Numbered from the stretch's first letter, positions 1,393 to 17,122 are shown. The stretch: DNA of 20,000 nucleotides from an uncultured virus (IMG/VR IMGVR_UViG_3300037418_002259) (IMGVR_UViG_3300037418_002259); one strand, 5' to 3'. Numbers and translations are program-made. The notes: a model not told the origin generated them from the letters alone.

Positions 1393-1410
1393 CCGGGAAG
1401 AGCAGCCCGG
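1393..1410 (+). promoter_or_regulatory. AAGAGCAG-loop leader hairpin 1
   Basis: CCGGG-AAGAGCAG-CCCGG, upstream of AGGAGAC and ATG 1433. Confidence 0.8.
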
Positions 1411-1432
1411 CCGGAGACACAGGAGACCCGAG

Positions 1433-1693
1433 ATGCCCGCAGCGATCCTCATCACCGTCGACCACCTCGACCCGTTCGCCACCGACTCGACCCCCGTCAA
1501 GGCGACCAGGCTCCGCGAGGGCATGGTGATCATGGACCCCGAACTCGGCACCCCGGCGCTGTGGCTCGACCACCGCACCCGCTCGACCCGCGGGTCCGGC
1601 AGCGTCTCGTGGTACGCCCACGACTTGGAGACCGGCCGGTTCGGCCCGCACACCTTCCACGAGAACCACCAGGTCAACGTCCTCGCGGACTGA
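1433..1693 (+). CDS. hypothetical protein, 86 aa
   Basis: ORF with AGGAGAC RBS and GC3-biased codons. Confidence 0.85.
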   Translation: MPAAILITVDHLDPFATDSTPVKATRLREGMVIMDPELGTPALWLDHRTRSTRGSGSVSWYAHDLETGRFGPHTFHENHQVNVLAD

Positions 1694-1729
1694 CCCGACG
1701 CGACACAACCGCACCACCCATCACACCGT

Positions 1730-1749
1730 GGCCGGAAGAGCAGCCGGCC
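1730..1749 (+). promoter_or_regulatory. AAGAGCAG-loop leader hairpin 2
   Basis: GGCCGG-AAGAGCAG-CCGGCC, upstream of AGGAGAC and ATG 1766. Confidence 0.8.
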
Positions 1750-1765
1750 CGAACAGGAGACCGAA

Positions 1766-2176
1766 ATGGGCAACAACACGCCTGAAGGCACCTTCGACTA
1801 CGACGTCACCGAAGGCGGCGTACTCGTGTACTTCGGCCCGGAGAACGGGCTGGACCTGACCACCCCGAGCGAGAACCCGATCGAACAGCGGGCGAACGTC
1901 GAGCGCGTGATCCGCGTGCTGCGGATGTTCGCGGCAAACCCCGACTCGACCGGCGTCCTGGACCTGGTCGAGAACGCGCCCGAGCCCGCACTGTTGGAGG
2001 CGCTGGCCGCGAACGCAGACGAGGTCATCGCCGAGCTGGAGCGGTACGCACGCGAGATCGGCAAGCCGTGCCGCGCGTGCGGCGGCGAGGGCGGACAGGA
2101 GAGCGGGCGCGATGGGCTCGACTGGACGGTCTGCACCGCCTGCGCCGGCACCCGAGTTGGGGAGTCGGCGGCGTAG
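1766..2176 (+). CDS. hypothetical protein with C-terminal DnaJ-type zinc-finger-like motif
   Basis: CRACGGEG...CTACAGT (CxxCxGxG-like pair); AGGAGAC RBS. Confidence 0.8.
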   Translation: MGNNTPEGTFDYDVTEGGVLVYFGPENGLDLTTPSENPIEQRANVERVIRVLRMFAANPDSTGVLDLVENAPEPALLEALAANADEVIAELERYAREIGKPCRACGGEGGQESGRDGLDWTVCTACAGTRVGESAA

Positions 2177-2214
2177 CACTCCCCCGACTGGACGCTGACT
2201 GGCGTCGCCTAGCA

Positions 2215-2385
2215 GCCTGTCCCTGACGGCAGACGGGGAGTCGACGCCCCAGCCGTTAGGGACAGGCCCGTACGGCGTCTGGTGGCATGGCCCTGGTGTG
2301 GCGCGTCGAGGGAAGTGCCTTTGGCCGTCCGCTCGATGTGCGGATGGGCGGACGACGTCCGTCTACATCGCCCGAGGCGCGCCAC
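2215..2385. other. highly structured intergenic region, candidate ncRNA
   Basis: 16-bp stem 2215-2230/2252-2267 (one G-U); GTGGCGCG(2298-2305)/CGCGCCAC(2378-2385) enclosing further helices; no credible ORF. Confidence 0.4.
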
Positions 2386-2403
2386 CCACGCCGGATCTGA
2401 ATT

Positions 2404-2449
2404 CGTATACCCGCTTAGCTTGCGCCATGACGCTAAGCGGGTATACGCT
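2404..2449 (+). promoter_or_regulatory. class I promoter P2 embedded in a perfect 16-bp inverted repeat
   Basis: TTGCGC(2420)-18 nt-TACGCT(2444-2449); CGTATACCCGCTTAGC(2404-2419)/GCTAAGCGGGTATACG(2432-2447). Confidence 0.8.
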
Positions 2450-2458
2450 TGCGTCATC

Positions 2459-2478
2459 GGGTCGAAGAGCAGCGGCCC
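2459..2478 (+). promoter_or_regulatory. AAGAGCAG-loop leader hairpin 3
   Basis: GGGTCG-AAGAGCAG-CGGCCC (one U-G pair). Confidence 0.75.
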
Positions 2479-2498
2479 CAGACCGAGGAGACACCACG

Positions 2499-3281
2499 AT
2501 GGACCTGACCACCGCCACCCCCGTCGAGATCGACACCAAACTGGCCGAGATCTCCGAAGAGGTCCGCAGCGCCCAGGTGATCGCAACGGCCGCATGGAAC
2601 AGCGTCGTCCGAGCCGCCACCAAGTACGTCGGCAAGGAAGGCAAGTTCGAGCGGGTCGGCCGCAAGACGGTCGCGATGCGCGCCACCGACGAGGAGATCC
2701 AGACCGCGCTGGTCGAGGCCGCCGAGTTCGAGGGCCAAGACATCTGCGCGATGGAGACGGCGGAGCAGCGAGTCAAGGCGTGGAACGGGCTGGACCTGGT
2801 CGAGGCGCAAGTCAGGTTCGAGGAGGCTGCCGACAAGGTTGCCGCGATCAAGGTGACCGCGCTGCCGTACGACGCCGAGTTCACCCGGCGCGGCGGCTGG
2901 TCCCGGTTCTTCCTGGTGACCAGCTCCGACGGGCACATCCACTCATCGATGAACTGCTCGACCTGCAACCCGCGCACAACGTACGCCTGGTACCCCGAGT
3001 TCTCTGGCCAGACCATGGCCGAGGCGATCGCCGCCTGGGACGAGCGAGGCTCCGCCGAGGTCCTGTGCACCACCTGCTTCCCCGACGCCCCCACCCCGCG
3101 GACACAGAAGCCGGTCGAGGACGGCGTGTGCCCCGGCTCTGGCACCTGGGACTACCCGGCCGAGACCGCCCGCAAGGGGTACGCCGCTGGAAACTACGGC
3201 GTCTGCCGCCACTGCGGCACCGCGATCACGATCAGCTCGACCGGCAAGATGCGGAAGCACAAGACCCCGAAGGCAGCCTGA
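2499..3281 (+). CDS. hypothetical Cys/His-rich (probably zinc-binding) phage protein, 260 aa
   Basis: Start re-called to ATG 2499 (AGGAGAC RBS); motifs GHIHSSMNCSTC, LCTTCFPDAP, CPGSG...CRHC. Confidence 0.85.
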   Translation: MDLTTATPVEIDTKLAEISEEVRSAQVIATAAWNSVVRAATKYVGKEGKFERVGRKTVAMRATDEEIQTALVEAAEFEGQDICAMETAEQRVKAWNGLDLVEAQVRFEEAADKVAAIKVTALPYDAEFTRRGGWSRFFLVTSSDGHIHSSMNCSTCNPRTTYAWYPEFSGQTMAEAIAAWDERGSAEVLCTTCFPDAPTPRTQKPVEDGVCPGSGTWDYPAETARKGYAAGNYGVCRHCGTAITISSTGKMRKHKTPKAA

Positions 3282-3286
3282 TCCCC

Positions 3287-3312
3287 GGCCGCCCGGCACC
3301 AGCCGGGCGGCC
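3287..3312 (+). terminator. GC-rich hairpin after the stop codon, no U-tract (terminator or stabiliser)
   Basis: GGCCGCCCGGC-ACCA-GCCGGGCGGCC. Confidence 0.45.
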
Positions 3313-3335
3313 CCCTCCCCGTTGGAGACCTAGCA

Positions 3336-3503
3336 ATGAAGACCTGGACCTGCCTCGGCTGCGACCGTGAGAACCCCGAATGGGCATTCGAGTGCGGCGG
3401 CTGCGGGCGCTGTAGTGAATGCGGCCAGATCCTCCCGACCGTGCCGGACCCACGCGAAACGTTCGACCTGCGGCAGCCGCACCGGCGAACCCACCTCGAC
3501 TAA
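3336..3503 (+). CDS. small RanBP2/NZF-type zinc-ribbon protein, 55 aa (absent from the ORF track)
   Basis: Translated by hand: MKTWTCLGCDRENPEWAFECGGCGRCSECGQILPTVPDPRETFDLRQPHRRTHLD; GGAGAC RBS; W-x-C-x2-C-x3-N-x6-C-x2-C. Confidence 0.75.
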   Translation: MKTWTCLGCDRENPEWAFECGGCGRCSECGQILPTVPDPRETFDLRQPHRRTHLD

Positions 3504-3553
3504 CCACCACTCCCCCGCGACGAGCACCGCGACCACACAGGAGACTGAGCACC

Positions 3554-3961
3554 ATGACCGCACTGAAACTGTTCGCCGGCACCGCAGTCTGGGTCCCCAA
3601 CGCCTGGAAGCGGCGCGTGACGGACGGCCCGCACTCGCAGCTTGACGTCGTTATCGTGGCCGCTTCCAAGGCAGGAGCGATCGAACTGCTGACCGGGATC
3701 GGCGAGCATGACAGCGCGGCCCAGGCCATCGCCCGCGCCTGCAGGTGGCAGCGCGACCACATGAGCAATCCGGTCCGCGATCTGGTGGACGCGAAAGTCG
3801 TCGACATGGACCAGGCCGGGATCTACGTGTGGAAGCGGTACGCGAAGGACAACCCCGTCGCTCGCATCGACGCGCCCGGGATGCCGATCGTCGGCCACTT
3901 CCGCATCGCGAAGGGCGAGCGTGGCTCGTGGTCGATGTACGCCGAGAAGGTGTCGGCATGA
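3554..3961 (+). CDS. hypothetical protein, 135 aa
   Basis: Start re-called to ATG 3554 (AGGAGAC upstream); stop overlaps next start (ATGA). Confidence 0.8.
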   Translation: MTALKLFAGTAVWVPNAWKRRVTDGPHSQLDVVIVAASKAGAIELLTGIGEHDSAAQAIARACRWQRDHMSNPVRDLVDAKVVDMDQAGIYVWKRYAKDNPVARIDAPGMPIVGHFRIAKGERGSWSMYAEKVSA

Positions 3962-4539
3962 CGATGCAGACCGCTCGCCCGATCGAGCACATCCAGGTCT
4001 CGACCATGACCCGCCCGTTGGGGTGGATCCTCGACTTCGCCCGGCCCGACCACCGACGCCATCTGGACATGGATCAGCCCTACCAGCGCGGCGACGTGTG
4101 GGGGCTCACCCGCCGGCGGAACCTCATCCGCTCGATGCTGCTCGGCGTGCCGATCCCGAGCCTGGTCGTCAACGACCGGTTCAGCGCACGGTTCCGCGAG
4201 CCCGGCTACGACCAGGACCGCAACTGGGCGTACGCGCTCGTCGACGGCAAGCAGCGCGCCACCACGTGGCTGATGTTCGTCGCCGACGAGTTCTCGGTGC
4301 CGGCGTCGTGGTTCGCTGAGGGAGTCTTGCGCGGCGAGGACACTGACGATGGCCCGTATGTGCGGCACAGCGGGCTCTCCGAGAGCATGCAGCGGATGTT
4401 TGACACGATGCCGATTGGGGTCGCGGAGGGCCGGTTTAAGACGCTCGAAGCTGAGCGGTACATCTTCGACCTGGTGAACTTCGGTGGCGTCGCCCAGGGC
4501 GAGAGTGACGACGACTTGGTGGTTCCCGAGGCGCGGTGA
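3958..4539 (+). CDS. DUF262-like (ParB/Srx-fold, GmrSD N-terminal-type) domain protein, 193 aa
   Basis: Motifs PYQRGDVW, LIRSMLLGVPIP and LVDGKQR match the QR...W / DGQQR signature of DUF262; ATGA coupling. Confidence 0.8.
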   Translation: MTMQTARPIEHIQVSTMTRPLGWILDFARPDHRRHLDMDQPYQRGDVWGLTRRRNLIRSMLLGVPIPSLVVNDRFSARFREPGYDQDRNWAYALVDGKQRATTWLMFVADEFSVPASWFAEGVLRGEDTDDGPYVRHSGLSESMQRMFDTMPIGVAEGRFKTLEAERYIFDLVNFGGVAQGESDDDLVVPEAR

Positions 4540-4556
4540 CTTGTCGGTAACTTGGC

Positions 4557-4585
4557 TTGCGTGGAACGCTAAGCGGGTATACGCT
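4557..4585 (+). promoter_or_regulatory. class I promoter P3
   Basis: TTGCGT-17 nt-TACGCT with GCTAAGCGGGTA in the spacer. Confidence 0.8.
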
Positions 4586-4595
4586 CTTCCTTGTC

Positions 4596-4613
4596 GCCGG
4601 AAGAGCAGCCGGC
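4596..4613 (+). promoter_or_regulatory. AAGAGCAG-loop leader hairpin 4
   Basis: GCCGG-AAGAGCAG-CCGGC. Confidence 0.8.
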
Positions 4614-4631
4614 CCAACTCAGGGAGACCAA

Positions 4632-5192
4632 ATGAACGTCACCAGCACCTGCGCGATCCTCGCCTCCGACTTCTCGCCGTCGACCACTGACAAGCTCCGG
4701 CGCAACTGGTCGGTCGGCAAGATGGCTCACGTGATCGCCGCGCTCGATGGCGCGCCCGTGGCCATCACCACGGACCGCCAGACCGGGCACACCCTGGTCG
4801 GCGTCCAGCTGATCAGCGCCTTCCAGGGCGGCGCTGGTCGGGGCCCCCGCGTCCAGGTGCGCATGACGCACACGGACGGCACCACGCAGGACACCAACTA
4901 CTACCTGTGGAATGTCGGCGAGGCCATCATCCCGATGGAGCGCGCCGAGGGCTCTGACGCGAAGTGGAAGGCGCTCGAATCGTTCCGCAGGCAGTGCTCC
5001 GAGGCGATCAAGGCCGCGCAGGAAGAGCACGGCGAGAGCGAGGGCCGCGCCTGGGGATCGTGGGAAGCCACCCCGATCGACGCGACCTCGGTCGGCGTCC
5101 GCTACACCCCGAGCACCGGCAACCCCGCGTTCGCCGACCGGTGGGGTACCCGGTGGAGCGGCAATGTTCGCACCGAGGCAGTGACCGCCTGA
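4632..5192 (+). CDS. hypothetical protein, 186 aa
   Basis: Start re-called to ATG 4632 after GGGAGAC. Confidence 0.85.
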   Translation: MNVTSTCAILASDFSPSTTDKLRRNWSVGKMAHVIAALDGAPVAITTDRQTGHTLVGVQLISAFQGGAGRGPRVQVRMTHTDGTTQDTNYYLWNVGEAIIPMERAEGSDAKWKALESFRRQCSEAIKAAQEEHGESEGRAWGSWEATPIDATSVGVRYTPSTGNPAFADRWGTRWSGNVRTEAVTA

Positions 5193-5205
5193 TCCCCCAC
5201 CCCTG

Positions 5206-5241
5206 AAGCGCCCGCTCCCCTTCCCCGGGGGCGGGCGCTTT
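5206..5241 (+). terminator. intrinsic terminator
   Basis: AAGCGCCCGCTCCC/GGGGGCGGGCGCTT stem ending in TTT, 13 nt after the stop. Confidence 0.7.
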
Positions 5242-5316
5242 CGCGTGCTCGACGCGACGCTAAGCAGGCACCTGCCCGAGACTCCGGAACGAACCACCTT
5301 CACCCCGGAGGCCCCG

Positions 5317-5817
5317 ATGACAACCCACCAGACCCCGCCGAACGCCGCGACCACACCTGAGGTCTGGCGTGCCATGGTCAACGCGAACAACGACTCGGCC
5401 GCGACCGACCCGGTCGACTGGGTCGAGACGACCGCGCCGCACTACTCCCCGCGGGGCCGGCACCGGTGGCTGTGGCACCTCGCGATCCCCCTCGGCGAGG
5501 TCCGGCCCGGTGGCGGCGTACAGGAGATCACCGCCCGGTCCGGCACCGCGCTCACGCAAGCCGGCGCGAAACGCAAGATCGGCCGCCTGGCCAGCAGGCA
5601 CTTCGCCGAGGCAGCCGGACGCGACCCGCACGGCCCCATGCTCGACGCGGTACGGCACTGGTCGCTGTTCGCTCTGCTCGTCACCGGTGTCGCGCTGATC
5701 CTGATGACGGCAGGCTGCACCCCGTCGACGCTGGGCGTGCTGGTCATGGTCGCCGCGATCGTCGGCATCGCAGCGACGCTGGCGAAGTCGCACCGCGCCC
5801 ACACCCGCCGTACGTGA
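5317..5817 (+). CDS. membrane protein with two C-terminal TM segments, 166 aa
   Basis: GGAGG RBS before ATG 5317; hydrophobic stretches WSLFALLVTGVALILMTAG and LGVLVMVAAIVGIAATLA. Confidence 0.75.
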   Translation: MTTHQTPPNAATTPEVWRAMVNANNDSAATDPVDWVETTAPHYSPRGRHRWLWHLAIPLGEVRPGGGVQEITARSGTALTQAGAKRKIGRLASRHFAEAAGRDPHGPMLDAVRHWSLFALLVTGVALILMTAGCTPSTLGVLVMVAAIVGIAATLAKSHRAHTRRT

Positions 5818-5892
5818 ATGCAAAGCGTGTGTACAGCGCGGCGGGATCGGCCTACTGTGTAGAGGACAGCCCTACACGTAGGCAGGTGCACC

Positions 5893-6093
5893 GTGCCGAA
5901 GCTGATGACGACCGCCGACCTCCCCGCCACCTTCCGCGCCGACTTCACCAACCCGATCGCGCTGCGCGCCGTACGCGCCTCCAAGCTGCGTCTCGACCTG
6001 GAGCGCTGCGAGCACGGCCGCACCGACTGCCCGTCCTGCGTGATCGAGGCCGCCCGGCAACTGGTGGCCGACGCGGAGCAACCGGCAACCTGA
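5893..6093 (+). CDS. hypothetical protein, 66 aa (CEH...CPSC)
   Basis: GTG start after AGGTG; followed by a terminator. Confidence 0.7.
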   Translation: MPKLMTTADLPATFRADFTNPIALRAVRASKLRLDLERCEHGRTDCPSCVIEAARQLVADAEQPAT

Positions 6094-6104
6094 CCCCTGC
6101 AACA

Positions 6105-6141
6105 GAACGCCCCGCGATCCCTGGTGGATTGCGGGGCGTTC
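6105..6141 (+). terminator. intrinsic terminator immediately upstream of P4
   Basis: GAACGCCCCGCGATCC/GGATTGCGGGGCGTTC stem followed by ATATT. Confidence 0.7.
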
Positions 6142-6144
6142 ATA

Positions 6145-6173
6145 TTGCCACCAATGCTAAGGGTGTGTACGCT
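6145..6173 (+). promoter_or_regulatory. class I promoter P4
   Basis: TTGCCA-17 nt-TACGCT; variant box GCTAAGGGTGTG. Confidence 0.75.
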
Positions 6174-6181
6174 CGTGTTGT

Positions 6182-6201
6182 GGTCGGAAGAGCAGCCGAC
6201 C
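6182..6201 (+). promoter_or_regulatory. AAGAGCAG-loop leader hairpin 5
   Basis: GGTCGG-AAGAGCAG-CCGACC. Confidence 0.8.
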
Positions 6202-6221
6202 CTCACCCAAGGAGACCCACC

Positions 6222-6371
6222 ATGAACAGCTTGCCGACCCGCACCGTCCGCTCCGTCACCCGCGACAGCCGCCGTACCTGCTTCGGCCGGCGCGCCACTG
6301 GCCGCAACCTCCTGGCCGGTCGCAGCAACGCCAACCGCGCTGCCATCGCCGCCTCGCTGGCCGGGTTCTGA
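6222..6371 (+). CDS. small basic protein, 49 aa (MNSLPTRTVR...ASLAGF)
   Basis: Full cassette upstream (promoter, hairpin, AAGGAGAC); 3' part of the track ORF 5466-6371. Confidence 0.75.
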   Translation: MNSLPTRTVRSVTRDSRRTCFGRRATGRNLLAGRSNANRAAIAASLAGF

Positions 6372-6376
6372 TCCCC

Positions 6377-6817
6377 GTGACCACCCGCGAAAAGCTGGCA
6401 ACGGTCATCCCGTTGCCAGCCGCGCCCCGGGCACCCCGCGAGCGCACAACCTCACCCGTCGACCTCACCCTTGAGGTCGACCGGGTGAAGTTGCGTCGCC
6501 ACGTGACGGCCGCGCTCCTGCGACACGGAGCCGACGGCCTCCGCGGCGACTGCTACTGCGGACTTCACCCCCGCTCCCTCCGGATGCACATGGCGTCGGC
6601 CGTCTCGATCGAGACCCACCTCCCCCGGTCGTACGTCGCCCCGCTCATGGAGAGGCACCGCAACGCGGTCGGCGTCACCGATCTCGTCTGCGACTGCGGT
6701 ACGACGTACACCCCGAGCGACTACGGCCGCGAACAGCACCTCGCGGCCGCGATCGTTGCCGACATTCCAGCAGATGGCGTACGCCGTGCGCTTGACGCGA
6801 TCCGAGCAGGAGACTGA
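6377..6817 (+). CDS. hypothetical protein with two CxCG...H(M/L)A repeats, 146 aa
   Basis: CYCG...MHMA and CDCG...QHLA, each preceded by RH; likely zinc binding. Confidence 0.7.
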   Translation: MTTREKLATVIPLPAAPRAPRERTTSPVDLTLEVDRVKLRRHVTAALLRHGADGLRGDCYCGLHPRSLRMHMASAVSIETHLPRSYVAPLMERHRNAVGVTDLVCDCGTTYTPSDYGREQHLAAAIVADIPADGVRRALDAIRAGD

Positions 6818-6822
6818 CCACC

Positions 6823-7593: not shown

Positions 7594-7596
7594 CCG

Positions 7597-7854: not shown

Positions 7855-8204
7855 GCGGCCTCGGACTGACTGACCCGCAGATGCGTGCCCTGCAAGCCGT
7901 GTACGACCTGTCCGGCGAGCACGAGGGCCGCTGCGAGATGGTCAGCCCGAGGCAGGTCGCGCTGCGACTCTGGCCGGACTCCCCCGCGTGGGATCGCCGG
8001 CCACGCCGCCAGGATGGCCACTTCGGTGGCCGGGGCGGCACGATGCCGATGAAGGCCGGGAAACTGCTGTGGCACCTACACAGCCGCGGACTGGCCCGGC
8101 GACACGAGAAACGCAACCTGTGGTCGCTGACCGCGCTCGGCTTGGACACTGTCCAGACCGCGCGGTCAGCGCTCACGCTCCCGATCCCGGAGACCACCCG
8201 ATGA
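7851..8204 (+). CDS. putative winged-helix DNA-binding protein, 117 aa
   Basis: LTDPQMRAL...SPRQVA...LWHLHSRGLARR...WSLTALG resembles a wHTH pattern; ATGA overlaps at both ends. Confidence 0.6.
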   Translation: MSGLGLTDPQMRALQAVYDLSGEHEGRCEMVSPRQVALRLWPDSPAWDRRPRRQDGHFGGRGGTMPMKAGKLLWHLHSRGLARRHEKRNLWSLTALGLDTVQTARSALTLPIPETTR

Positions 8205-9934
8205 CCCTCAAGCTCGCGCCGGACTTCACCATGCCCGACCAGGCCGTCACAGAGACCTTCGGCATCCTCGCCGTACGACGCTCCGGCAAATCGAACGCCG
8301 CCGTCGTCATAGCTGAGGAGATGTACCACGCCGGGCTGCCGTGGGTCGCGATCGACCCCAAGGGCGACTGGTGGGGCATGCGTTCGTCCGGCGACGGCAA
8401 GAAGCCCGGCCTGTCCGTGCTCGTGTTCGGAGGCGACCACGCCGACGTGCCGCTGGAGCCGACAGGCGGCGAGCTGGTCGCGGACCTGATCGTCGACCAG
8501 CGCATCACCTGCATCCTCGACATCTCGGAGATGATCAAGGCCGAGCAGACCCGGTTCCTGCTGGCGTTCGCGAACCGCCTCTACAAGCGCAACCGGAAGC
8601 CGCTGCACGTGTTCTGCGAGGAAGCCGACGAGTACATCCCGCAGCAGGTGCTCGGCGAGGACGCCAAGGTCGTGCGGGCGTTCGAGATCCTGATCAAGCG
8701 CGGCGGCCACCGAGGGATCGGGTCGACGCTGATCACGCAGCGGTCCGCGTCGCTGAACAACAACGTGCTCACGCAGGTCGAGACGCTGTTCGCGATGCGC
8801 ACGCTCGGAACGTCGGACCGGAAGGCCGTGAAGGACTGGGCGACCGGCCACGACACCGGCGTCGACGTCGTCGCCGAGCTGCCGCACCTCCACCAGGGCG
8901 AGGCGTGGGTGTTCTCCCCGCACTTCCTGCAGACCGTGCAGAAGATCCAGTTCCGTCGACGCCGCACGTTCGACTCCGGAGCTACCCCGAAGGTAGGCCA
9001 GGAGATCATCACCCCGACCCGTCGCGCCGACGTCGACCTCGCCGCGATCCGCGACGCGATGGCAGAGACGATCGAACGCGCCCAGGAGAACGACCCCGCC
9101 GAGCTGCGCCGGCGGAACGCTGCACTCGAGCGGAAGCTCGCGGACGCGCTGCGGCAACTGAAGCAGATCACGCCGCCGAAGCCGATCGAGGTCAAGGTCC
9201 CCGTGCTCACGGACGAGATGCGGGAGTCGATGCTGGCCGCGTCCGAGCGCATCGGCGAGCGGGTAGCTGCCGTGATGGCCGAGGCGCAGGAACAGATCGC
9301 TGCGGCAGTCGCCCCGGTCGTGGAAGCGCTCCGGACAGCCAAGATCCCCACCGTGCCGTCACCGAACATGGTCAAGCCGCCGCGACTTCCATCTGTCCGC
9401 CCGGTCGACGTCACACCGCGCGTCATCGACGCCACCAAGCCGGACACGGTCCACCTGGAAGGCGCTGGAGCGCGCCGAATGGTCGAGGCGCTGGGCCGGA
9501 TGGCTCCGCTCCGGCTGACGAAAGCTCAGTGGGGCACTGTCTCGCACATGAAGACCAGCGGCGGCACCTGGTCGACGTACCTGAGCCGGATCCGTCAGCT
9601 CGGGTTCCTCGACGAGAACGCCGCCGGTTACACGCTCACCGATGCCGGGTTCGACTACCTCGGCGGCCGGCCCGAGCCGATGACCGCTGCCGAACTGCAG
9701 GACCACTACCGCACGATCCTGCGCGCCGGGGCCGCGAAGATGCTCGACGCGCTGCTCGACGCCTACCCGCACGCGCTGACCAAAGACCAGCTCGGCGAGG
9801 CCGCCGGCATCGTCACCACCGGTGGCACGTTCTCGACGTACCTCGGAGACCTGACCCGCAACGGCCTGGCAGAGCGCCGCCCGGACGGCACCATCGCCGC
9901 TACCGACATCCTCATCCACGGAGCCAATCAGTGA
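8201..9934 (+). CDS. HerA/FtsK-superfamily (DUF87-like) P-loop ATPase with coiled coil and tandem C-terminal winged helices, 577 aa
   Basis: Walker A AVRRSGKS, IDPKGDW, Walker B VFCEEADE, KRGGHRG, LITQR; start re-called to ATG 8201 (GGAGAC RBS, ATGA overlap). Confidence 0.85.
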   Translation: MTLKLAPDFTMPDQAVTETFGILAVRRSGKSNAAVVIAEEMYHAGLPWVAIDPKGDWWGMRSSGDGKKPGLSVLVFGGDHADVPLEPTGGELVADLIVDQRITCILDISEMIKAEQTRFLLAFANRLYKRNRKPLHVFCEEADEYIPQQVLGEDAKVVRAFEILIKRGGHRGIGSTLITQRSASLNNNVLTQVETLFAMRTLGTSDRKAVKDWATGHDTGVDVVAELPHLHQGEAWVFSPHFLQTVQKIQFRRRRTFDSGATPKVGQEIITPTRRADVDLAAIRDAMAETIERAQENDPAELRRRNAALERKLADALRQLKQITPPKPIEVKVPVLTDEMRESMLAASERIGERVAAVMAEAQEQIAAAVAPVVEALRTAKIPTVPSPNMVKPPRLPSVRPVDVTPRVIDATKPDTVHLEGAGARRMVEALGRMAPLRLTKAQWGTVSHMKTSGGTWSTYLSRIRQLGFLDENAAGYTLTDAGFDYLGGRPEPMTAAELQDHYRTILRAGAAKMLDALLDAYPHALTKDQLGEAAGIVTTGGTFSTYLGDLTRNGLAERRPDGTIAATDILIHGANQ

Positions 9935-10383: not shown

Positions 10384-10391
10384 GGAAACCA

Positions 10392-11232: not shown

Positions 11233-11612
11233 CCCGCATCAGCTTCCGCGGGTACCGCCTGGCCGAGCACGAGACCGTCACCGATGAGGCGCTCGCCGGC
11301 ATGCGCGGTCAGACGTTCGTGATCCGCGACGGGGACCGCCAGACCGCCGCGCGTGTGGTCGAGGCCGTCGTGCGGGACGGGTGGATCGTGGCGACGGCAG
11401 ATCTCGACGTAGACGATTTCCCGTCCACCTTCGCTGCGGTGTTCGACGTCGGCCCGCTGAGCGTGCGCGTCCTGCCTGACATGCCGGCCGAACAGCGGTA
11501 CGTGCCGACACCCGGCGAGCCGGACTGGTCGAGCATCCCGCAGACGCTCGCGCCGTCGCGGCTCGACCAGGTCCTGTACGGCACGGACAGCGAGTTGCGG
11601 TTTCATGACTGA
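11229..11612 (+). CDS. hypothetical protein, 127 aa
   Basis: GTGA overlap with the upstream stop. Confidence 0.7.
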   Translation: MTRISFRGYRLAEHETVTDEALAGMRGQTFVIRDGDRQTAARVVEAVVRDGWIVATADLDVDDFPSTFAAVFDVGPLSVRVLPDMPAEQRYVPTPGEPDWSSIPQTLAPSRLDQVLYGTDSELRFHD

Positions 11613-11660
11613 CGGGTATCAACCGGGTGCTGATTGAACTCGGCAGTAGCCCGGCGCAGA

Positions 11661-11686
11661 CGCTCAGCGTGTACACGCAGTACCCT
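11661..11686 (+). promoter_or_regulatory. class II (leaderless-type) promoter candidate
   Basis: CGCTCAGCGTGTACACGC-AG-TACCCT, 6 nt before GTG 11693. Confidence 0.45.
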
Positions 11687-11692
11687 GAGCCC

Positions 11693-11884: not shown

Positions 11885-12312
11885 CGATCCCTGACTTCGC
11901 GAGCATGACGTGGACCTGCAACGTCTGTGGTGACGAACGGCCGGATGCAATGATCGGCGTAGCGAAGCGCCCAGGCCCGTTCCTGTCCGAACGGGTCCGC
12001 CCGTTCTGGAACATTCGGTACTGCAGAGACCGTCCGGCCTGCGTCGAGTACGCCCAGCAGGACGGCGAGTGGCTCGGCCCGGCTGAGCGGTACGACGTGC
12101 GCGTCTACTGCGACGGGATCACCATGGAGGAACTCAACCGCTGCGCAGCTATCAGCCAAGCGAGCCCGTACGACGTGCAATGGTCTGGGATCTGCGGCCG
12201 GACGGTCGCGATGGTGTCCCTGCACGCGGCGTCGGCTGTCGCCGCGGAGAAGCACGTCGGGGATCTGCTCCGAGCGGCTGGCGTCCGACCGCTTTTCACC
12301 GACGTCACCTGA
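11881..12312 (+). CDS. hypothetical protein with N-terminal zinc ribbon, 143 aa
   Basis: WTCNVC...YCRDRPAC; ATGA overlap. Confidence 0.75.
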   Translation: MTIPDFASMTWTCNVCGDERPDAMIGVAKRPGPFLSERVRPFWNIRYCRDRPACVEYAQQDGEWLGPAERYDVRVYCDGITMEELNRCAAISQASPYDVQWSGICGRTVAMVSLHAASAVAAEKHVGDLLRAAGVRPLFTDVT

Positions 12313-12468
12313 CCGGGATTTGGCCGGGATTCTTGCGTATTCGTCCGAGATCCCACCGTGCCATGCTCGCGCTGTGGCAGCCTGGCGACCGCGACTCGTT
12401 GTTTCCTCCTTTGGCCGGGCGTCGCTCGCCGGGTCTCGTTCGCAGCGGGGCCCGGCATCAGCACGAGA

Positions 12469-12494
12469 CGCTAACGGTGTCCACGGTGCACACT
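12469..12494 (+). promoter_or_regulatory. class II (leaderless-type) promoter candidate
   Basis: CGCTAACGGTGTCCACGG-TG-CACACT, 7 nt before ATG 12502, which has no RBS. Confidence 0.35.
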
Positions 12495-12501
12495 CACCCG
12501 C

Positions 12502-13377
12502 ATGACCGACTCGCCGATCTCCGGGTACTGGGCCGAGGGACGTGTCGCCGATGGCGGCTGTAGCTTCCGCTGGGCTGAGAACGCGCCTCGATGCGGCGCG
12601 CCCGTCACGCTGCACGTGCTGACTGAGTCCGCGATCTACGGCAAGGGCAGCGTCGGGACCTGTGAACCGCACGCCTCGATCGCCCGCGCGGTCGGGGTGT
12701 ACCTCGGCGAGCACTCCCCCAGCTTCCCGGACTGCCGCTGCACCCCGGTCCACGACCAGGAGCGCCCGCAGCTCGCCGCGGACCCGGACGACGTCCACCG
12801 TGACCCGCTCGACGGTGTGCCGGACTATGTCAAGGATCGGCTCCGGTACAGCGACCGTGTCCCGTTCGACCTGGTGTTCGCTCGCCGCGCTCTCTCCCAG
12901 GTCCGCGCGGCCCCGGACCCGTCGACCGTCTCGATCCACTACCGGGTTCCCCGCGACGGCGTGGAGGGGCCGCTCTGCGGGGCCCCCGGATCTGGCGTCC
13001 TCGCCGGCCACTGGCGTGCCGTGTCCTGCCCAGCCTGCCGGACAACCGGGCTCGACCCGTCGATGGCGTATGGCCGCATCGTGCCCGGCAGTGAACTCGA
13101 CGTGCCACGCCTGCCCGGCACCGTGTTCGCGGTCGAGGTCCGCCCGCCGTACGACCCGGAACTCGACCGGCGGCTCCGCGCCGTCCGACTGGCGGTCCCG
13201 TACGCCCGCGACGGCCTCACCCACTACCCCGATACACACGACGGCTGGGACATCCGCCCGCTCTGCGGAGCCGGCAAGTACCTCATGGATCTCCGCGCCG
13301 CGAGCGAGTACGTCACGTCCCGCAACTGGCGGCTCGTGTCCTGCCCGACCTGCCGAACCACGGAGACCCCACGATGA
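12502..13377 (+). CDS. hypothetical protein with repeated zinc-binding modules, 291 aa
   Basis: Two copies of HY...DG...PLCGA...WRxVSCPxCRTT. Confidence 0.75.
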   Translation: MTDSPISGYWAEGRVADGGCSFRWAENAPRCGAPVTLHVLTESAIYGKGSVGTCEPHASIARAVGVYLGEHSPSFPDCRCTPVHDQERPQLAADPDDVHRDPLDGVPDYVKDRLRYSDRVPFDLVFARRALSQVRAAPDPSTVSIHYRVPRDGVEGPLCGAPGSGVLAGHWRAVSCPACRTTGLDPSMAYGRIVPGSELDVPRLPGTVFAVEVRPPYDPELDRRLRAVRLAVPYARDGLTHYPDTHDGWDIRPLCGAGKYLMDLRAASEYVTSRNWRLVSCPTCRTTETPR

Positions 13378-13640
13378 GCGACCGCGGACACTACGTGCTC
13401 CCCGACGGCGGCCCCCTCGTCCCCGAGGTCGCACTCCCGCCGTTCCCCCCGCCCGAGTTCGACCCGCCCGCAGTCACGTACATGATCGAGTACGACTCCC
13501 GCTCAGACGGCGGACCCCGCCGCGTCGGCCCGTTCGACGACCGCGTGACCGCACAACGGCACGCCGACAGCCACACCGGCCCCGGCTTCACCGCCTCCTG
13601 GTGCGTCGTACCCGTCACCTCGCCCCAGGCAGACACCTGA
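13374..13640 (+). CDS. hypothetical protein, 88 aa
   Basis: GGAGAC RBS; ATGA and TGATG overlaps. Confidence 0.7.
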   Translation: MSDRGHYVLPDGGPLVPEVALPPFPPPEFDPPAVTYMIEYDSRSDGGPRRVGPFDDRVTAQRHADSHTGPGFTASWCVVPVTSPQADT

Positions 13641-14314
13641 TGCCCCGCAACAAACGACCCCGAGGACGCCCAACCCTCCTCACCCCCGACAGGCAAGCCA
13701 AGCTCTTCGACATCGTGAAGAAGGGCAACCACCTCACCACCGCCTGCGCAGTCGTCGGCATAGGCGTCTCCACCATGTACCGGTGGCTCGAAGACGCAGA
13801 CGAAGCCGAAGCCACCCAACTCGAAGGCGGCGACATCACCCCCCGCCAACAGGCGTGCGTGGAATTCCGGGATGGGTTGAGGCTCGCGCGCGCGCACGCG
13901 GAGATGCGTGCGGTGTCGGTGATCGAGCGGAGCATGGAGGGTGGGGCGCTGATTTCGGAGCGTCCGTTGCAGAACTCTGAGGGCGAGTTGGTGATGGATC
14001 CGGTCACGGGTGAGCCGATGTATGAGCGGACGTTCACGCAGCCGGATGGGCGGCTGGCGCTGAACTACCTGGCGCGGTCTGCTCCGCACATGTGGGGCCA
14101 GAACGTGTCTACGGGCGCGTTGGGTGACGCTGGCGGCGGTTCGGCGGCTGGTGGGCAGGCTGGTGGGGATCTGAGCGAGGATGACGCGGCGCGGCTGGCG
14201 CGGCAGTTGGCGCAGGTTGCGGCGCGGGTTCGGGAGGATGCGGAGCAGGAGCGGTTGGAGTTGGAGGCCGGCGGTGTGCAGGACGCGGAGATCGTTGAGG
14301 ATAAGGCGTCTTGA
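13640..14314 (+). CDS. HTH DNA-binding protein, terminase small subunit-like, 224 aa
   Basis: GRPTLLTP...GNHLTTACAVVGIGVSTMYRWLE HTH; DGRLALNYLARSAPHMWG resembles the AAxWxLERxxPxxWG motif of this phage family; acidic helical tail. Confidence 0.65.
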   Translation: MPRNKRPRGRPTLLTPDRQAKLFDIVKKGNHLTTACAVVGIGVSTMYRWLEDADEAEATQLEGGDITPRQQACVEFRDGLRLARAHAEMRAVSVIERSMEGGALISERPLQNSEGELVMDPVTGEPMYERTFTQPDGRLALNYLARSAPHMWGQNVSTGALGDAGGGSAAGGQAGGDLSEDDAARLARQLAQVAARVREDAEQERLELEAGGVQDAEIVEDKAS

Positions 14315-14329
14315 CGCGCATGGGTGAAC

Positions 14330-14341
14330 GCTAAGCGGGTA
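14330..14341 (+). promoter_or_regulatory. isolated GCTAAGCGGGTA box
   Basis: Exact 12-mer without the TACGCT -10 or a correctly spaced TTG. Confidence 0.6.
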
Positions 14342-14350
14342 GTCTCTGAC

Positions 14351-14389
14351 GCGAAGCGCCCGGCCATCCCCCCTTGGTCGGGCGCTTCG
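14351..14389 (+). terminator. probable intrinsic terminator
   Basis: GCGAAGCGCCCGGCCA/TGGTCGGGCGCTTCGC stem followed by CATGTT. Confidence 0.65.
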
Positions 14390-14480
14390 CCATGTTCGCG
14401 CTCCTCGCACCACAGGCCGAGGAACGGGCCCGCGCGTACACACGCTGCGCGTTGCGTGGGTTGACGCGCCCAAAGCTGCA

Positions 14481-14506
14481 CGCTCAGCGGGGGTACGCGG
14501 TACGGT
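14481..14506 (+). promoter_or_regulatory. class II (leaderless-type) promoter candidate
   Basis: CGCTCAGCGGGGGTACGC-GG-TACGGT, 6 nt before ATG 14513. Confidence 0.45.
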
Positions 14507-14512
14507 GCGGAA

Positions 14513-14752
14513 ATGACCCCACGAACACGAGCGAATTCCGGTGAAGAACCAACCCCGGCCCGCCGCGTCCGGACCATGAACCGGCAGCGGCACGGCTGGA
14601 CCGAAGCCGAAGCCCGCGACCTCCTCCGCCAGGGCTACGAGCCCGACCAGGTCGCACGCGTCACCGGGTACGGCATCGAATGGGTACAGGCGCAGCCGAT
14701 CCCCCGCAAGCCGATCCACCCGGCGCTCGCCGCGACGCAACCGCGTGAGTGA
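14513..14752 (+). CDS. small HTH-like protein, 79 aa
   Basis: ARDLLRQGYEPDQVARVTGYGIEWV resembles a helix-turn-helix. Confidence 0.6.
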   Translation: MTPRTRANSGEEPTPARRVRTMNRQRHGWTEAEARDLLRQGYEPDQVARVTGYGIEWVQAQPIPRKPIHPALAATQPRE

Positions 14753-15161
14753 CGGCAGACTGCCCGGCATGCCATTGACCCCTGCGACCCGCCAGCACCT
14801 GTACAAGGTGACCGCCGACCTGCCGATGTGCGGGTGTGGATACCCGGAGGCCGCCTACCAGCTTGTTGTCGACCTGCTGAAGCTCGCGCCGTTCTACCAG
14901 CACCGTGAGGATGTCGCGCGTCTGGTCGGCCCCGAGGACGGGGGCGTGTACGCCCTGGTGCTCGGCGCGCTGGACCACGCGGAACTGATCGAGCACGGCG
15001 GCAACATCTCCGGGTCGTGGATCACGCCGAAGGGGAATTGGTTCCTGCAGGCGGTGGAGTTGGCAGGCGGACCCGACGAACTGTCCGACGCGACCGCCGA
15101 GCAGGGCTACCCGCACAACGGTGGCAAGTGCACCGTCGCGTGCTGGGAGAAGACACCGTGA
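14745..15161 (+). CDS. hypothetical phage protein, 138 aa
   Basis: CGCGYPE...LIEHGGNISGSWITPKG; coding-like codon usage. Confidence 0.75.
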   Translation: MSDGRLPGMPLTPATRQHLYKVTADLPMCGCGYPEAAYQLVVDLLKLAPFYQHREDVARLVGPEDGGVYALVLGALDHAELIEHGGNISGSWITPKGNWFLQAVELAGGPDELSDATAEQGYPHNGGKCTVACWEKTP

Positions 15162-15442
15162 GCTGCCACTGTCGCCGCTCGTGCTGCTGCCGCCGCGGGC
15201 CGGGACTCGTCGACTCGTTCGACGTCGAGCCGGCGCAGCCGTACGACGGCCCGATCGTCACGCCGACCGGCGCGGTCATCCCGGATGAGTACCTGACGGA
15301 CCGCGTGCACCCCGGACCGAGTGCTGGCGTGGCGTACTGGAGCGCCGTACGACCGCAGCCACGCCTCCCGGACCCGTTCCCGAGGCCACGGCCCGGGGTC
15401 GTCCGGCGGCTGGTCAGGCTGCTGCGCCCGACGCGACGTTAA
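15158..15442 (+). CDS. hypothetical protein with Cys-rich N-terminus, 94 aa
   Basis: GGAGA RBS; GTGA overlap. Confidence 0.6.
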   Translation: MSCHCRRSCCCRRGPGLVDSFDVEPAQPYDGPIVTPTGAVIPDEYLTDRVHPGPSAGVAYWSAVRPQPRLPDPFPRPRPGVVRRLVRLLRPTRR

Positions 15443-15500
15443 CCAGGGCCCGGGGTGACCGTGAGGAGGTTGACCCCGACCCCAGGAGGCGCAACACCTC

Positions 15501-15932
15501 ATGAGACGCATCGCCGTCGTCACTCAAGCTGTCGCGTTCATCGTCACCGGTCTACTCGTCCTGTTCGCTCTCGGGTTGCTCGCCACGAAGCAGAACGGTC
15601 CGCCGCGCGCCGCGATCCCCGAGCTGATCCTGCTCGGGATCGCGATCATCGCGTTCCTGCTCGCCTCGAAGCCGTACGTCGACGCGGACGCTGAAGAGCC
15701 GGCCAAGCCGGTCGAGGTGCGGCTGTGGGATCCGCAGGTGGATCTGCTCGCGAGGATCGTGGATTCGTTGGCCGAGCGGACGGCGCAGCATCCCGGGCCG
15801 AAGCCGATCCCGGACATGACGTATGCGCCGACGTTGCCGCCTGACGGGCTCGGAGTGGACACGCCGCCGCAGGTGCGGGAGACGAGGCTGCCGCGTCCGC
15901 GTCGCGGGGCGCATCGTGCGTCGCCTCGATGA
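15501..15932 (+). CDS. membrane protein with two N-terminal TM helices, 143 aa
   Basis: AGGAGG RBS; two hydrophobic segments. Confidence 0.8.
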   Translation: MRRIAVVTQAVAFIVTGLLVLFALGLLATKQNGPPRAAIPELILLGIAIIAFLLASKPYVDADAEEPAKPVEVRLWDPQVDLLARIVDSLAERTAQHPGPKPIPDMTYAPTLPPDGLGVDTPPQVRETRLPRPRRGAHRASPR

Positions 15933-15936
15933 CCGC

Positions 15937-15965
15937 TTGCCCAGAATGCTAAGCGGGTATACGCT
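15937..15965 (+). promoter_or_regulatory. class I promoter P5
   Basis: TTGCCC-17 nt-TACGCT with GCTAAGCGGGTA; CCGCTT half-site over the -35. Confidence 0.8.
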
Positions 15966-15973
15966 TGGGTTGT

Positions 15974-15991
15974 GCCGGAAGAGCAGCCGGC
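15974..15991 (+). promoter_or_regulatory. AAGAGCAG-loop leader hairpin 6
   Basis: GCCGG-AAGAGCAG-CCGGC. Confidence 0.8.
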
Positions 15992-16009
15992 CCAATCCAA
16001 GGAGACCCG

Positions 16010-16228
16010 ATGCACATCACCGTCGCGAACCCCGACAACCCCTTCGACGCCCCCGCCTACGACGGCGAGTCCAAGGAAGCCCACACCGTACTGGCGGCCG
16101 GTGAGTACACCGCCACCGTCGTCTCCGACGACGAGTACGACGGCACCGAGGTCGCGCTCCTGGTCGGCTCGACGTCCAGCTTCGCGGCCCCGATCGTCGA
16201 CATCGACCACATCCACACCCGCGCCTGA
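16010..16228 (+). CDS. acidic hypothetical protein, 72 aa
   Basis: Start re-called to ATG 16010 after AAGGAGAC. Confidence 0.8.
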   Translation: MHITVANPDNPFDAPAYDGESKEAHTVLAAGEYTATVVSDDEYDGTEVALLVGSTSSFAAPIVDIDHIHTRA

Positions 16229-16241
16229 CCGCTGAGGACCA

Positions 16242-16272
16242 CCGGCCCGAGCACTCCCCCCGCTCGGGCCGG
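16242..16272 (+). terminator. GC-rich hairpin after the stop codon, no U-tract
   Basis: CCGGCCCGAGC/GCTCGGGCCGG. Confidence 0.45.
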
Positions 16273-16289
16273 ACCCCTGAACGATCAGA

Positions 16290-16305
16290 CCGGAAGAGCA
16301 CCCGG
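16290..16305 (+). promoter_or_regulatory. leader hairpin 7 (loop variant AAGAGCAC)
   Basis: CCGG-AAGAGCAC-CCGG upstream of GAGGAGAC and ATG 16326. Confidence 0.7.
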
Positions 16306-16325
16306 CAACTACCGAGGAGACCCAA

Positions 16326-16757
16326 ATGCCCAAGCGTGGACAGACGCTCCCCTTCCGCCTCGACTACACGTGGGACCCGACCAGCGACAAGCCGGTCAAG
16401 GGCTGCGTGCGGTTCTCGGATCGCGAAGAGATGGAGATGTTCGCGGCCGAGCAGCGCAGCCTGGCCGAGTCCCAGGACCGCATCATCGAGCACAAGTTCA
16501 CCGACGACACCCCGGCGAGCTACGACACCATGACCCCGAAGGGCGGCGCGCAGCAGCGCGGATCCGACCGAGGCGTCGCCGCGTTCCGTGGCGGCGAGGT
16601 CAAGCGCGGACGGCTCGTCGCCACCGCAGCCGAGGCAGGACAGCAGGCGTACCCGAACGACGAGGAACTCGCCTTCGCCTACGCCGAAGAGTTCATCGTC
16701 GGCTACGAGGCGATGCAGAAGAGCGCCCGCCGCGAGCGCAGCCGCCGCCGCGCATGA
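16326..16757 (+). CDS. hypothetical protein, 143 aa
   Basis: AGGAGAC RBS. Confidence 0.85.
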   Translation: MPKRGQTLPFRLDYTWDPTSDKPVKGCVRFSDREEMEMFAAEQRSLAESQDRIIEHKFTDDTPASYDTMTPKGGAQQRGSDRGVAAFRGGEVKRGRLVATAAEAGQQAYPNDEELAFAYAEEFIVGYEAMQKSARRERSRRRA

Positions 16758-16803
16758 CCCGCCGCACCCACCAGACGATCAAGACCACGAAGAAGGTGAC
16801 ACC

Positions 16804-17040
16804 ATGACCACCCCCGCCCGACCACCTGCCGTCGCTCGCGCCGAGTCGCGGGCTGTCGCCGTACTCGTCAAGTCCGGCGCGTCCGACAACACCTACACGC
16901 GGATCGTTGCCGAGGACATCGTCGGCGAGTACATGGTCACCGGGAACGTGACGGCGTACGGGCTGATCCGTCAGCTGATCGGCGACACGCTCGCCGGCGA
17001 ACTGGCGGAGGCTCGCGCCGCCGAGAAGGTGTCGGCGTAG
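16804..17040 (+). CDS. hypothetical protein, 78 aa
   Basis: GAAGGTG RBS before ATG 16804. Confidence 0.75.
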   Translation: MTTPARPPAVARAESRAVAVLVKSGASDNTYTRIVAEDIVGEYMVTGNVTAYGLIRQLIGDTLAGELAEARAAEKVSA

Positions 17041-17063
17041 CGAAGGGAGTTGGCTGCACCCGC

Positions 17064-17092
17064 TTGGCGAAAACGCTAAGCGGGTGTACGCT
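17064..17092 (+). promoter_or_regulatory. class I promoter P6
   Basis: TTGGCG-17 nt-TACGCT with GCTAAGCGGGTG; inverted ACCCGCTT at 17058-17065. Confidence 0.8.
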
Positions 17093-17102
17093 TGTGTCAT
17101 CA

Positions 17103-17122
17103 GGTCGGAAGAGCAGCCGACC
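17103..17122 (+). promoter_or_regulatory. AAGAGCAG-loop leader hairpin 8
   Basis: GGTCGG-AAGAGCAG-CCGACC. Confidence 0.8.

Follow-up and report, generated by a model that had tools for sequence, protein, structure and literature searches.

The 20,000-nucleotide (nt) stretch of DNA analysed here, referred to as the window, is part of a 136,199-nt contig of an uncultured virus (IMG/VR IMGVR_UViG_3300037418_002259) from a rhizosphere metagenome. It is 68% GC, and its open reading frames (ORFs) run rightward except for two leftward ORFs at the left end. Eight short hairpins, all intergenic and all on the plus strand, head non-structural phage genes in the window (Table 1). The loop is AAGAGCAG in seven of them and AAGAGCAC in one (16290), and a C/A-rich spacer leads from the stem to a GGAGAC Shine-Dalgarno (SD) sequence, present in 8/8 at 6-11 nt from the stem end, with the distance from the loop end to the ATG being 22-27 nt in every copy. 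An earlier reading of the same DNA (hereafter the original prediction) had listed eight plus-strand copies, a loop identical in seven and variant in one, and a start codon with a GGAGAC ribosome-binding site 22-27 nt behind each loop, and all of these, coordinates included, were confirmed. Two of the hairpins, at 1730 and 16290, each lie ~320-340 nt downstream of another copy (1393 and 15974, respectively).

The loop consensus AAGAGCAS is itself strongly over-represented, with nine matches in the window where 0.51 (standard deviation 0.69) would be expected, and 0 of 200 shuffles reach nine. All nine are on the plus strand and none on the minus strand, in agreement with the sense-strand bias originally noted, which extends to the one match in coding sequence. 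This ninth match (5023-5030, AAGAGCAC) lies within the ORF at 4632-5192 and is stemless, and we treat it as a non-member that serves as an internal negative.

Table 1. Positions of the hairpins, promoter-like cassettes and tRNA-like elements; coordinates are those of the window except in the last row, which refers to loci of the related contig G005 (see text).
Feature	Coordinates	Strand	Sequence or structure	SD (GGAGAC)	ATG	Context
Hairpin 1	1393-1410	+	CCGGG-AAGAGCAG-CCCGG	1422-1427	1433	86-amino-acid ORF, phrog_23190
Hairpin 2	1730-1749	+	GGCCGG-AAGAGCAG-CCGGCC	1756-1761	1766	without promoter copy
Hairpin 3	2459-2478	+	GGGTCG-AAGAGCAG-CGGCCC, one U-G pair	2487-2492	2499	260-amino-acid ORF, phrog_2433
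Hairpin 4	4596-4613	+	GCCGG-AAGAGCAG-CCGGC	4623-4628	4632	186-amino-acid P0001
Hairpin 5	6182-6201	+	GGTCGG-AAGAGCAG-CCGACC	6211-6216	6222	
Hairpin 6	15974-15991	+	GCCGG-AAGAGCAG-CCGGC	16001-16006	16010	
Hairpin 7	16290-16305	+	CCGG-AAGAGCAC-CCGG, variant loop	16316-16321	16326	without promoter copy; GC hairpin 16246-16268 upstream
Hairpin 8	17103-17122	+	GGTCGG-AAGAGCAG-CCGACC	17132-17137	17141	
P1	1220-1248	+	TTGCCT, 17 nt, TACGCT			18-mer GCTAAGCGGGTATACGCT at 1231-1248; followed by tRNA-like RNA, then hairpin 1
P2	2420-2449	+	TTGCGC, 18 nt, TACGCT			18-mer at 2432-2449; hairpin 3 after 9 nt
P3	4557-4585	+	TTGCGT, 17 nt, TACGCT			hairpin 4 after 10 nt
P4	6145-6173	+	TTGCCA, 17 nt, TACGCT			variant 18-mer GCTAAGGGTGTGTACGCT; hairpin 5 after 8 nt
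P5	15937-15965	+	TTGCCC, 17 nt, TACGCT			hairpin 6 after 8 nt
P6	17064-17092	+	TTGGCG, 17 nt, TACGCT			hairpin 8 after 10 nt
Inverted 18-mer copy	2402-2419	-	two mismatches			15-bp inverted repeat with 2432-2446 around the P2 -35
tRNA-like RNA	1259-1389	+	131 nt; GGGAGCG/CGCTCCC 7-bp acceptor-like stem			between P1 and hairpin 1
G005 minihelix loci	L290:8538-9108, L290:795-863, L289:16102-16170	-	acceptor-like stem and T-arm-like hairpin			

Stem covariation and the upstream cassette

The stems are 4-6 base pairs (bp) long, GC-rich and varied in sequence (Table 1). Stems of at least 4 bp flank 8 of the 9 AAGAGCAS matches, compared with 2.3% when 15,000 positions of the window are drawn at random. 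Across the eight copies 89.6% of cells are paired, as against 73.4% when columns are shuffled, and the covariation score is 0.476 as against 0.113, values which in either case are reached by 0/500 shuffles; four of the six pairs change on both sides, where 1.0 would be expected. When the 3' partner is slid out of register pairing falls to 12.5-50%. The shuffles and slid registers bear out the proposal of covarying stems that had been made from these same copies, including the U-G pair of GGGTCG/CGGCCC. Minimum free energy folds of 8/8 leaders contain the hairpin and leave the SD outside it, with at most 1-4 short further pairs in the spacer and SD stretch. The eight hairpins are a genuine family with a selected loop, covarying stems and leader placement.

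Directly upstream of five hairpins is a cassette TTGCNN-17/18-TACGCT, which we take to be a sigma-70-family layout with an actinobacterial TANNNT -10 box, and these hairpins start 8-10 nt past the box. The 18-mer GCTAAGSGKGTRTACGCT is present in six copies on the plus strand and one on the minus strand of the window, against an expectation of 0.00. The cassettes are thus candidate promoters and, supposing transcription starts 7 nt after TACGCT, the hairpin stem is predicted at about +1 to +4. The original prediction had also placed five copies behind a -10 box: the spacing of 8-10 nt stands, and the position at the transcript 5' end is retained as a prediction. Of the three copies that it had described as lacking an adjacent promoter, those at 1730 and 16290 do so, but the copy at 1393 has a promoter copy 145 nt upstream (1231-1248).

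In four of the six cassettes the right part of the 18-mer, GCTAAGCGGGT, complements the -35 region (A)CCCGCTT(A)GC, and inverted repeats are found at 2402-2446 (a perfect 15 bp, 2402-2416/2432-2446), 1214-1241, 15934-15958 and 17059-17086. The repeat at P2 could act as an operator or, like those of the PeSL cassettes considered below, terminate transcription arriving from upstream. Orphan half-sites GCTAAGCGGG (or GCTAAGCAGG, GCTCAGCGGG) are present at 5259, 14330 and 14482 on the plus strand and at 11462 on the minus strand, without a full promoter or hairpin, and could be extra binding sites for a putative recogniser of the spacer element.

The first hairpin differs from the others that have a promoter copy in being separated from it by a tRNA-like RNA (1259-1389), which in addition to its acceptor-like stem has a T-arm, GAAGG-TTCGAAC-CCTTC, and three further arms. 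ARAGORN makes no call on this RNA, and its best Rfam match, to tRNA-Sec, is weak (17.5 bits, E 0.43). It may act as a processing signal.

AGAGCGA-loop hairpins in other phage lineages

Related hairpins, with the loop AGAGCGA, are present in five IMG/VR contigs of 78-127 kilobases (kb) that represent three further lineages, each with 10-36 copies of the motif. G001 (114.6 kb) was reached through an exact 18-mer, the promoter sequence that it has in common with the window, and contains the promoter motif 12 times when two mismatches are allowed, most of these copies leading into an AGAGCGA-loop GC hairpin, ACAGGAG and a start codon. The remaining contigs, G002-G005, were found by scanning for an AGAGCGA hairpin plus SD. 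In G002, a 126.9-kb contig classed as a provirus, GAGAGCGAC is present in 36 copies, 3+33 by strand (control 2+1), and the corresponding counts are 0+11 in G003, 0+10 in G004 and 1+17 in G005 (controls 0), these last three being contigs of 78-89 kb that are near-identical where compared. The promoters differ, with TTGCCA..TTAAATACCGGTACNNTC in G002 and CTTGAC..GCTAAATGNNTGTAC in G005, and the hairpin loop is the same.

Counted on both strands, stems of at least 4 bp directly flank AGAGCGA in 9/25 cases in G001, 36/53 in G002 and 8/38 in G005, compared with a background of ~2.8%. An SD-like site and start codon within 45 nt downstream accompany 13/25, 41/53 and 33/38 of the motifs in these contigs, and 8/9 in the window; the background is 9.5-11.4%, and among the SD-linked motifs 12, 39 and 22, respectively, have a hairpin when up to three extra loop bases are allowed. 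In 39 distinct hairpins with a 7-nt loop 78.6% of cells are paired, compared with 58.4% when shuffled and at most 48.1% in slid registers, and 70 double-sided changes are seen against 28.9. As these 39 were pre-selected for at least four pairs plus an SD, the inner four pairs pair by construction and the weight falls on the outer pairs and on the unselected counts of flanking stems given above. Interior wobbles in the relatives are G-U in 16 cases and A-C in five, which favours the sense strand. In four genomes the motif starts 14-20 nt, mostly 15-18, past the TAC of the -10 box, regardless of stem length, the exception being one G005 copy at 26.

Compared with AGAGCGA, the window loop is longer by one A and has AG in place of GA, so that the core AGAGC is common to both. 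The window copies resemble the sister family in repeating, always on the coding strand, a GC hairpin with an AGAGC-core loop between a promoter-like cassette and an SD. Overall the phages have little else in common. The window and G001 are linked by one short blastn segment and 4/40 window ORFs find a match, and the genes common to G001, G002 and G005 are only DnaB and three tail-fibre genes, the latter suggesting related hosts. Judged from these sequences, the element is kept across at least four phage lineages with almost no common genes.

The G002 and G005 contigs have 33 and 38 tRNA genes, respectively. In G005 AGAGCGA is found also 3-5 nt past tRNA 3' ends (e.g. tRNA-Val, L287 8580-8651), and six Y-shaped, mini tRNA-like elements of ~45 nt, composed of a 6-bp acceptor-like stem and a 7-bp T-arm-like hairpin, sit just past stop codons with AGAGCGA within 4 nt and an SD 7-11 nt further on (Table 1). 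Several of the AGAGCGA sites that follow minihelices are without a flanking stem. The minihelices belong to no Rfam family and receive no ARAGORN call. In every context the motif would thus adjoin a predicted mRNA 5' end, whether primary or generated by tRNA-type processing. Loci noted for these tRNA genes are L280:932-6667 and L287, and G002 also encodes a protein with a TROVE (Ro60-like) domain (L286:2434-4065, plus strand).

By megablast and blastn against 50,697 phage records the window matches nothing but the HerA segment of MW202482.1, and neither that record nor 10 HerA-related loci have leader hairpins of the AGAGC type; the window itself encodes a HerA/FtsK-like ATPase (DUF87) at 8201-9934. 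The 14-mer CGGAAGAGCAGCCG is unspecific in viral contigs (>121 loci, those examined being coding repeats), and a pattern of window-type hairpin plus SD finds 20 loci, all of them coding EEQP-like stretches without stem or promoter. Promoter plus motif yields one chance match each in genome_contigs (an archaeal metagenome-assembled genome) and metagenome_contigs (44% GC), and at this stringency no related prophages where each species is represented by a single genome, a result that does not itself show absence. Matches to the promoter 16-mer outside G001 are at chance, some of them inside tRNA genes. Judged by the portal protein (45.8% identity), the named phage closest to G002 is Streptomyces phage Gilgamesh, in which RAGAGCRR is not enriched (22+18, control 26+12), and in five contigs with single matches to the pattern of this group (G006-G010) the counts equal the control.

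The original prediction had been unable to match the hairpin to a described family, and Rfam searches leave this standing: the whole window at E<=1 gives three unrelated weak matches, positions 1200-1440 at E<=10 give nothing on the hairpin, and the G005 region gives nothing. Literature searches likewise found no description of this hairpin in actinophages. The family appears new to the literature, and akin to phage leader cis-elements and start-associated repeats.

A leader hairpin with a putative loop reader, and the alternatives

By architecture the closest published analogue is the SAS/ESAS repeat of Cluster K mycobacteriophages, the function of which is given as unknown (PMC3203893, published in 2011, and the papers on Adephagia, PMC11373665, and Yasnaya_Polyana, PMC12699233). 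As described there, these repeats have a single orientation, number 11-19 per genome, lie just upstream of non-structural start codons and in many cases accompany a conserved SigA-like promoter that contains an imperfect inverted repeat (ESAS), much as the window has six cassettes, four with an inverted repeat. The analogy is one of architecture and not of sequence homology. SAS is described as a hairpin-free linear 13-mer, GGGATAGGAGCCC, which takes in the SD and lies 3-9 bp from start codons, in contrast to the conserved loop, covarying stems and position 6-11 nt before the SD seen here, and at up to three mismatches the 13-mer matches the window 7 times against 6.72 expected, with no match at a start site except a chance overlap with hairpin 1. 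A 17-bp palindrome reported for Cluster O phages is the reverse of our element, having a conserved stem and a variable centre (PMC4351075), where the window hairpins have a fixed loop and varying stems.

A selected loop on drifting stems indicates that something reads the loop, or that the loop has a specific shape. The place of the hairpin before the SD, the copies only a few hundred bases apart, the copies behind tRNAs and the open SD favour a post-transcriptional role exerted message by message over the loading of polymerase, and the second hairpins, only ~320-340 nt after the first, fit a role per gene better than one per operon. Taking these together we tentatively favour, as a leading candidate that is still short of probable, a hairpin at the 5' end of the leader that protects the message and offers its fixed loop to a sequence-specific reader, by which stability or translation would be controlled. 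The repeated unit would comprise a sigma-70-type promoter, often within an inverted repeat, the GC hairpin starting at a predicted position of about +1 to +3, the C/A-rich spacer, GGAGAC and the ATG. In such an arrangement the stem at the message 5' end would shield it from 5'-end-dependent decay and keep the ribosome site open, the 5' end being either primary or processed behind a tRNA-like RNA, and the invariant loop would dock the reader, allowing stability or translation of all tagged messages to be set together. The phage-wide RNA-protein regulon of the original prediction is kept here as a hypothesis, and sequence alone does not discriminate among the four roles it had named (antitermination, translational control, processing and protection from a phage nuclease).

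Two groups of well known elements are instructive here. Stabiliser hairpins close to mRNA 5' ends (within ~0-4 nt) are exemplified by the E. coli ompA leader, the T7 gene 10 leader and B. subtilis leaders, and like them the window hairpin is a stem-loop a few nt from the (here predicted) 5' end, with an unstructured spacer and then a strong SD behind it; unlike them, which are not known to need a particular loop sequence, it has its loop as the most conserved part. Translational operators such as those of MS2 and PP7 coat protein, T4 gp43 (with an 8-nt loop) and RegA resemble it in being short hairpins with a sequence-specific loop near the ribosome site, and in that one reader can serve several messages. 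These operators overlap the SD or start codon, however, whereas the hairpin described here ends 6-11 nt before the SD, which is left unsequestered in the folds.

The phages share few genes yet keep the loop, which makes a host reader plausible and indeed a serious possibility. If so, the window's altered loop, combined with a promoter also used by G001, would reflect a different host or a changed reader. A loop conserved in at least four near-unrelated lineages points to a common reader, possibly to a general marking of messages by phages, and the fixed loop offers a handle for isolating it. Control of gene expression in actinophages is poorly understood, and here a compact, selected element heads most of the non-structural transcription units. 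The cassette of insulated promoter, 5' hairpin, C/A spacer and strong SD also constitutes a ready expression module for high-GC actinomycetes.

Several observations weigh against this explanation. The folding energies of the leaders are ordinary for their composition (z -0.46 to -2.81), so the case is built on recurrence, strand, place and covariation and not on stability. An E. coli-type consensus scan of the window finds 0 promoters, and promoter status, the 5'-terminal position, the reader and the direction of its effect are all read from sequence, as 5' ends, expression and processing are likewise predictions. The sequencing runs listed for the window comprise a single DNA run, probably its source, and none of RNA. 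Most of the G-U excess among wobbles in the relatives comes from a single pair that recurs in G002. When a covariance model is built from the 39 AGAGCGA hairpins, the window copies score 6.9-9.8 bits (E 1.3-7.6), and at E<=10 6/8 of them are found among 34 matches, the first-ranked of which is a non-member; as the model fails to separate the window copies from noise, their kinship with the sister family rests on three features, namely the identical architecture, the common AGAGC core and the promoter that the window has in common with G001. No reader was found, the one phage candidate tested being P0001 (see below), and the operon-internal GC hairpins without T-tails (3287-3312, 5208-5238, 14353-14388) fit antitermination equally well.

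Antitermination is accordingly the alternative that has to be taken most seriously, though we consider it unlikely. The loop would then recruit a phage N-like or a host Nus-type factor to RNA polymerase, as at the lambda nut sites, where N reads boxA and boxB and a small promoter-proximal hairpin is present on several early transcripts. The likeness is considerable: five of the six cassettes have the hairpin in a promoter-proximal position, and an invariant loop sits, as in boxB, on stems whose sequence is of little importance. The three GC hairpins just mentioned are terminator-like, lie in units without a further promoter copy and would be read through by the modified polymerase, and P4 (6145) would need to serve ~9.7 kb. 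The boxB loop, however, is a GNRA-like pentaloop, compared with 8 nt in 8/8 window copies and 7-9 nt in the relatives, and boxA (consensus YGCTCTTWA), which in lambda lies a few nt upstream of boxB on the same strand, has 0 matches on either window strand at up to one mismatch. No Pfam or PHROGs hint of an N-like arginine-rich gene is seen in the 20-kb window, although no profile exists for such small proteins. Nor would a polymerase-loading site need a second copy ~320-340 nt after the first (1730, 16290), where reloading is superfluous, or the recurrence gene by gene beside the SD documented above for the window, G002 and G005, or the copies behind tRNAs in arrays. The internal hairpins are without T-tails, and scanning for terminators finds no more than chance would give (7 against 6.8). 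The comparison with lambda boxB and MS2/PP7 made in the original prediction therefore holds for hairpin likeness but not for strict membership, given the 8-nt loop, the missing boxA and the uncovered SD and start codon.

It is improbable that the hairpin is a reader-less structural 5' stabiliser or insulator, with a loop maintained at the DNA level through duplication or gene conversion of the cassette. Duplication would account for the repetition of the entire ~75-nt cassette and for the 5' arm GTTGGG that is nearly constant in G002, and has a precedent in the PeSL cassettes of the T4-type phages RB49 and phi1, promoter plus stem-loop modules that spread and mediate shuffling (Arbiol et al. 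2010, PMC2839356). PeSLs too are many modules of promoter, GC stem-loop and SD before small genes of unknown function, and the inverted repeat in four of the six window promoters resembles the position of their stem-loop. In the same account the PeSL stem-loop is within or before the promoter and precedes the transcription start, terminates upstream transcription and has no invariant loop (PMC2839356), whereas the AAGAGCAG hairpin begins 8-10 nt past the -10 box, downstream of the predicted start, and its loop is invariant. Moreover, stems in the window and in G001 differ at nearly every copy while the loop is constant, the opposite of what drift after duplication would produce, and the loop core persists between genomes without nucleotide similarity.

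We also find it quite improbable that the loop, or the motif in single-stranded form, is a mark for RNA processing, i.e. a cleavage or stop site for a host or phage RNase that would convert polycistronic and tRNA-containing precursors to mature messages with the hairpin at their 5' ends. Such a site would be well placed ~4 nt past tRNAs and after minihelices in G005, after the tRNA-like RNA in the window and in the promoterless intergenic copies at 1730 and 16290, but most copies directly follow a promoter, where processing is unneeded, no nuclease candidate was identified and the cleavage itself is hypothetical. Finally, it is very improbable that the element acts as duplex DNA, as an operator or roadblock bound by a regulator immediately past the promoter. 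The fixed distance from the -10 box and the operator-like inverted repeats of the promoter would suit such a site, but compensatory stem changes are meaningless for a duplex, copies exist without promoters and behind tRNAs, and the motif, which is asymmetric, keeps to one strand (9:0 in the window, 33:3 in G002).

The leader hairpin with a loop reader can be extended to a more specific proposal. The closing pairs and loop read GG-N-AGAGC-R, which is the 3' half of most tRNA D-arms, including those of these phages' own tRNAs (L280:900-6700, L287); this likeness may be chance or mimicry. If the latter, the AGAGC loop could be an identity tag on phage messages, read by a common host component (ribosome, RNase or tRNA-handling enzyme) through mimicry of the D-arm G18-G19-N-AGAGC-R, and marking mRNA 5' ends that are primary or tRNA-processed. 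We regard this as speculative and rather doubtful. Were it true, it would imply message maturation and selective translation based on tRNA mimicry in large actinophages.

P0001 and other features of the window

P0001 (4632-5192, 186 amino acids), which follows hairpin 4, was considered as a phage-encoded reader and rejected, since two complete phages that lack the motif (G011, G012) encode homologues, and the protein is missing from G001, where the motif is present. Of the non-structural proteins of the window, G002 and G005 it is the best conserved (~50% identity), and it has 30 homologues, those of G002 and G005 likewise sitting behind a promoter and AGAGCGA hairpin. Its structural model is confident (predicted local distance difference test score, pLDDT, 92). 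Foldseek finds nothing at E 0.001 or better for the protein, and VIA-align matches to its N-terminal domain are Sm/Hfq-like only, with Z 5.8-6.7, a range stated to be common.

Strong GC hairpins follow stop codons in the window at 3287-3312, 5208-5238, 6106-6140, 14353-14388 and 16246-16268, mostly without a T-tail, and could be terminators lacking U-tails, 3' stabilisers or processing sites. In a 322-nt gene-free gap (2177-2498) a long imperfect hairpin at 2215-2267 (GCCTGTCCCTGACGGC...GCCGTTAGGGACAGGC) lies upstream of the inverted promoter copy and might be a putative small RNA. Among the remaining ORFs, that at 3745-4539 is GmrSD_N/DUF262-like, and that at 13637-14314 encodes a helix-turn-helix protein with a small-terminase PHROGs match; no other window ORF has homologues in all three of G001, G002 and G005.

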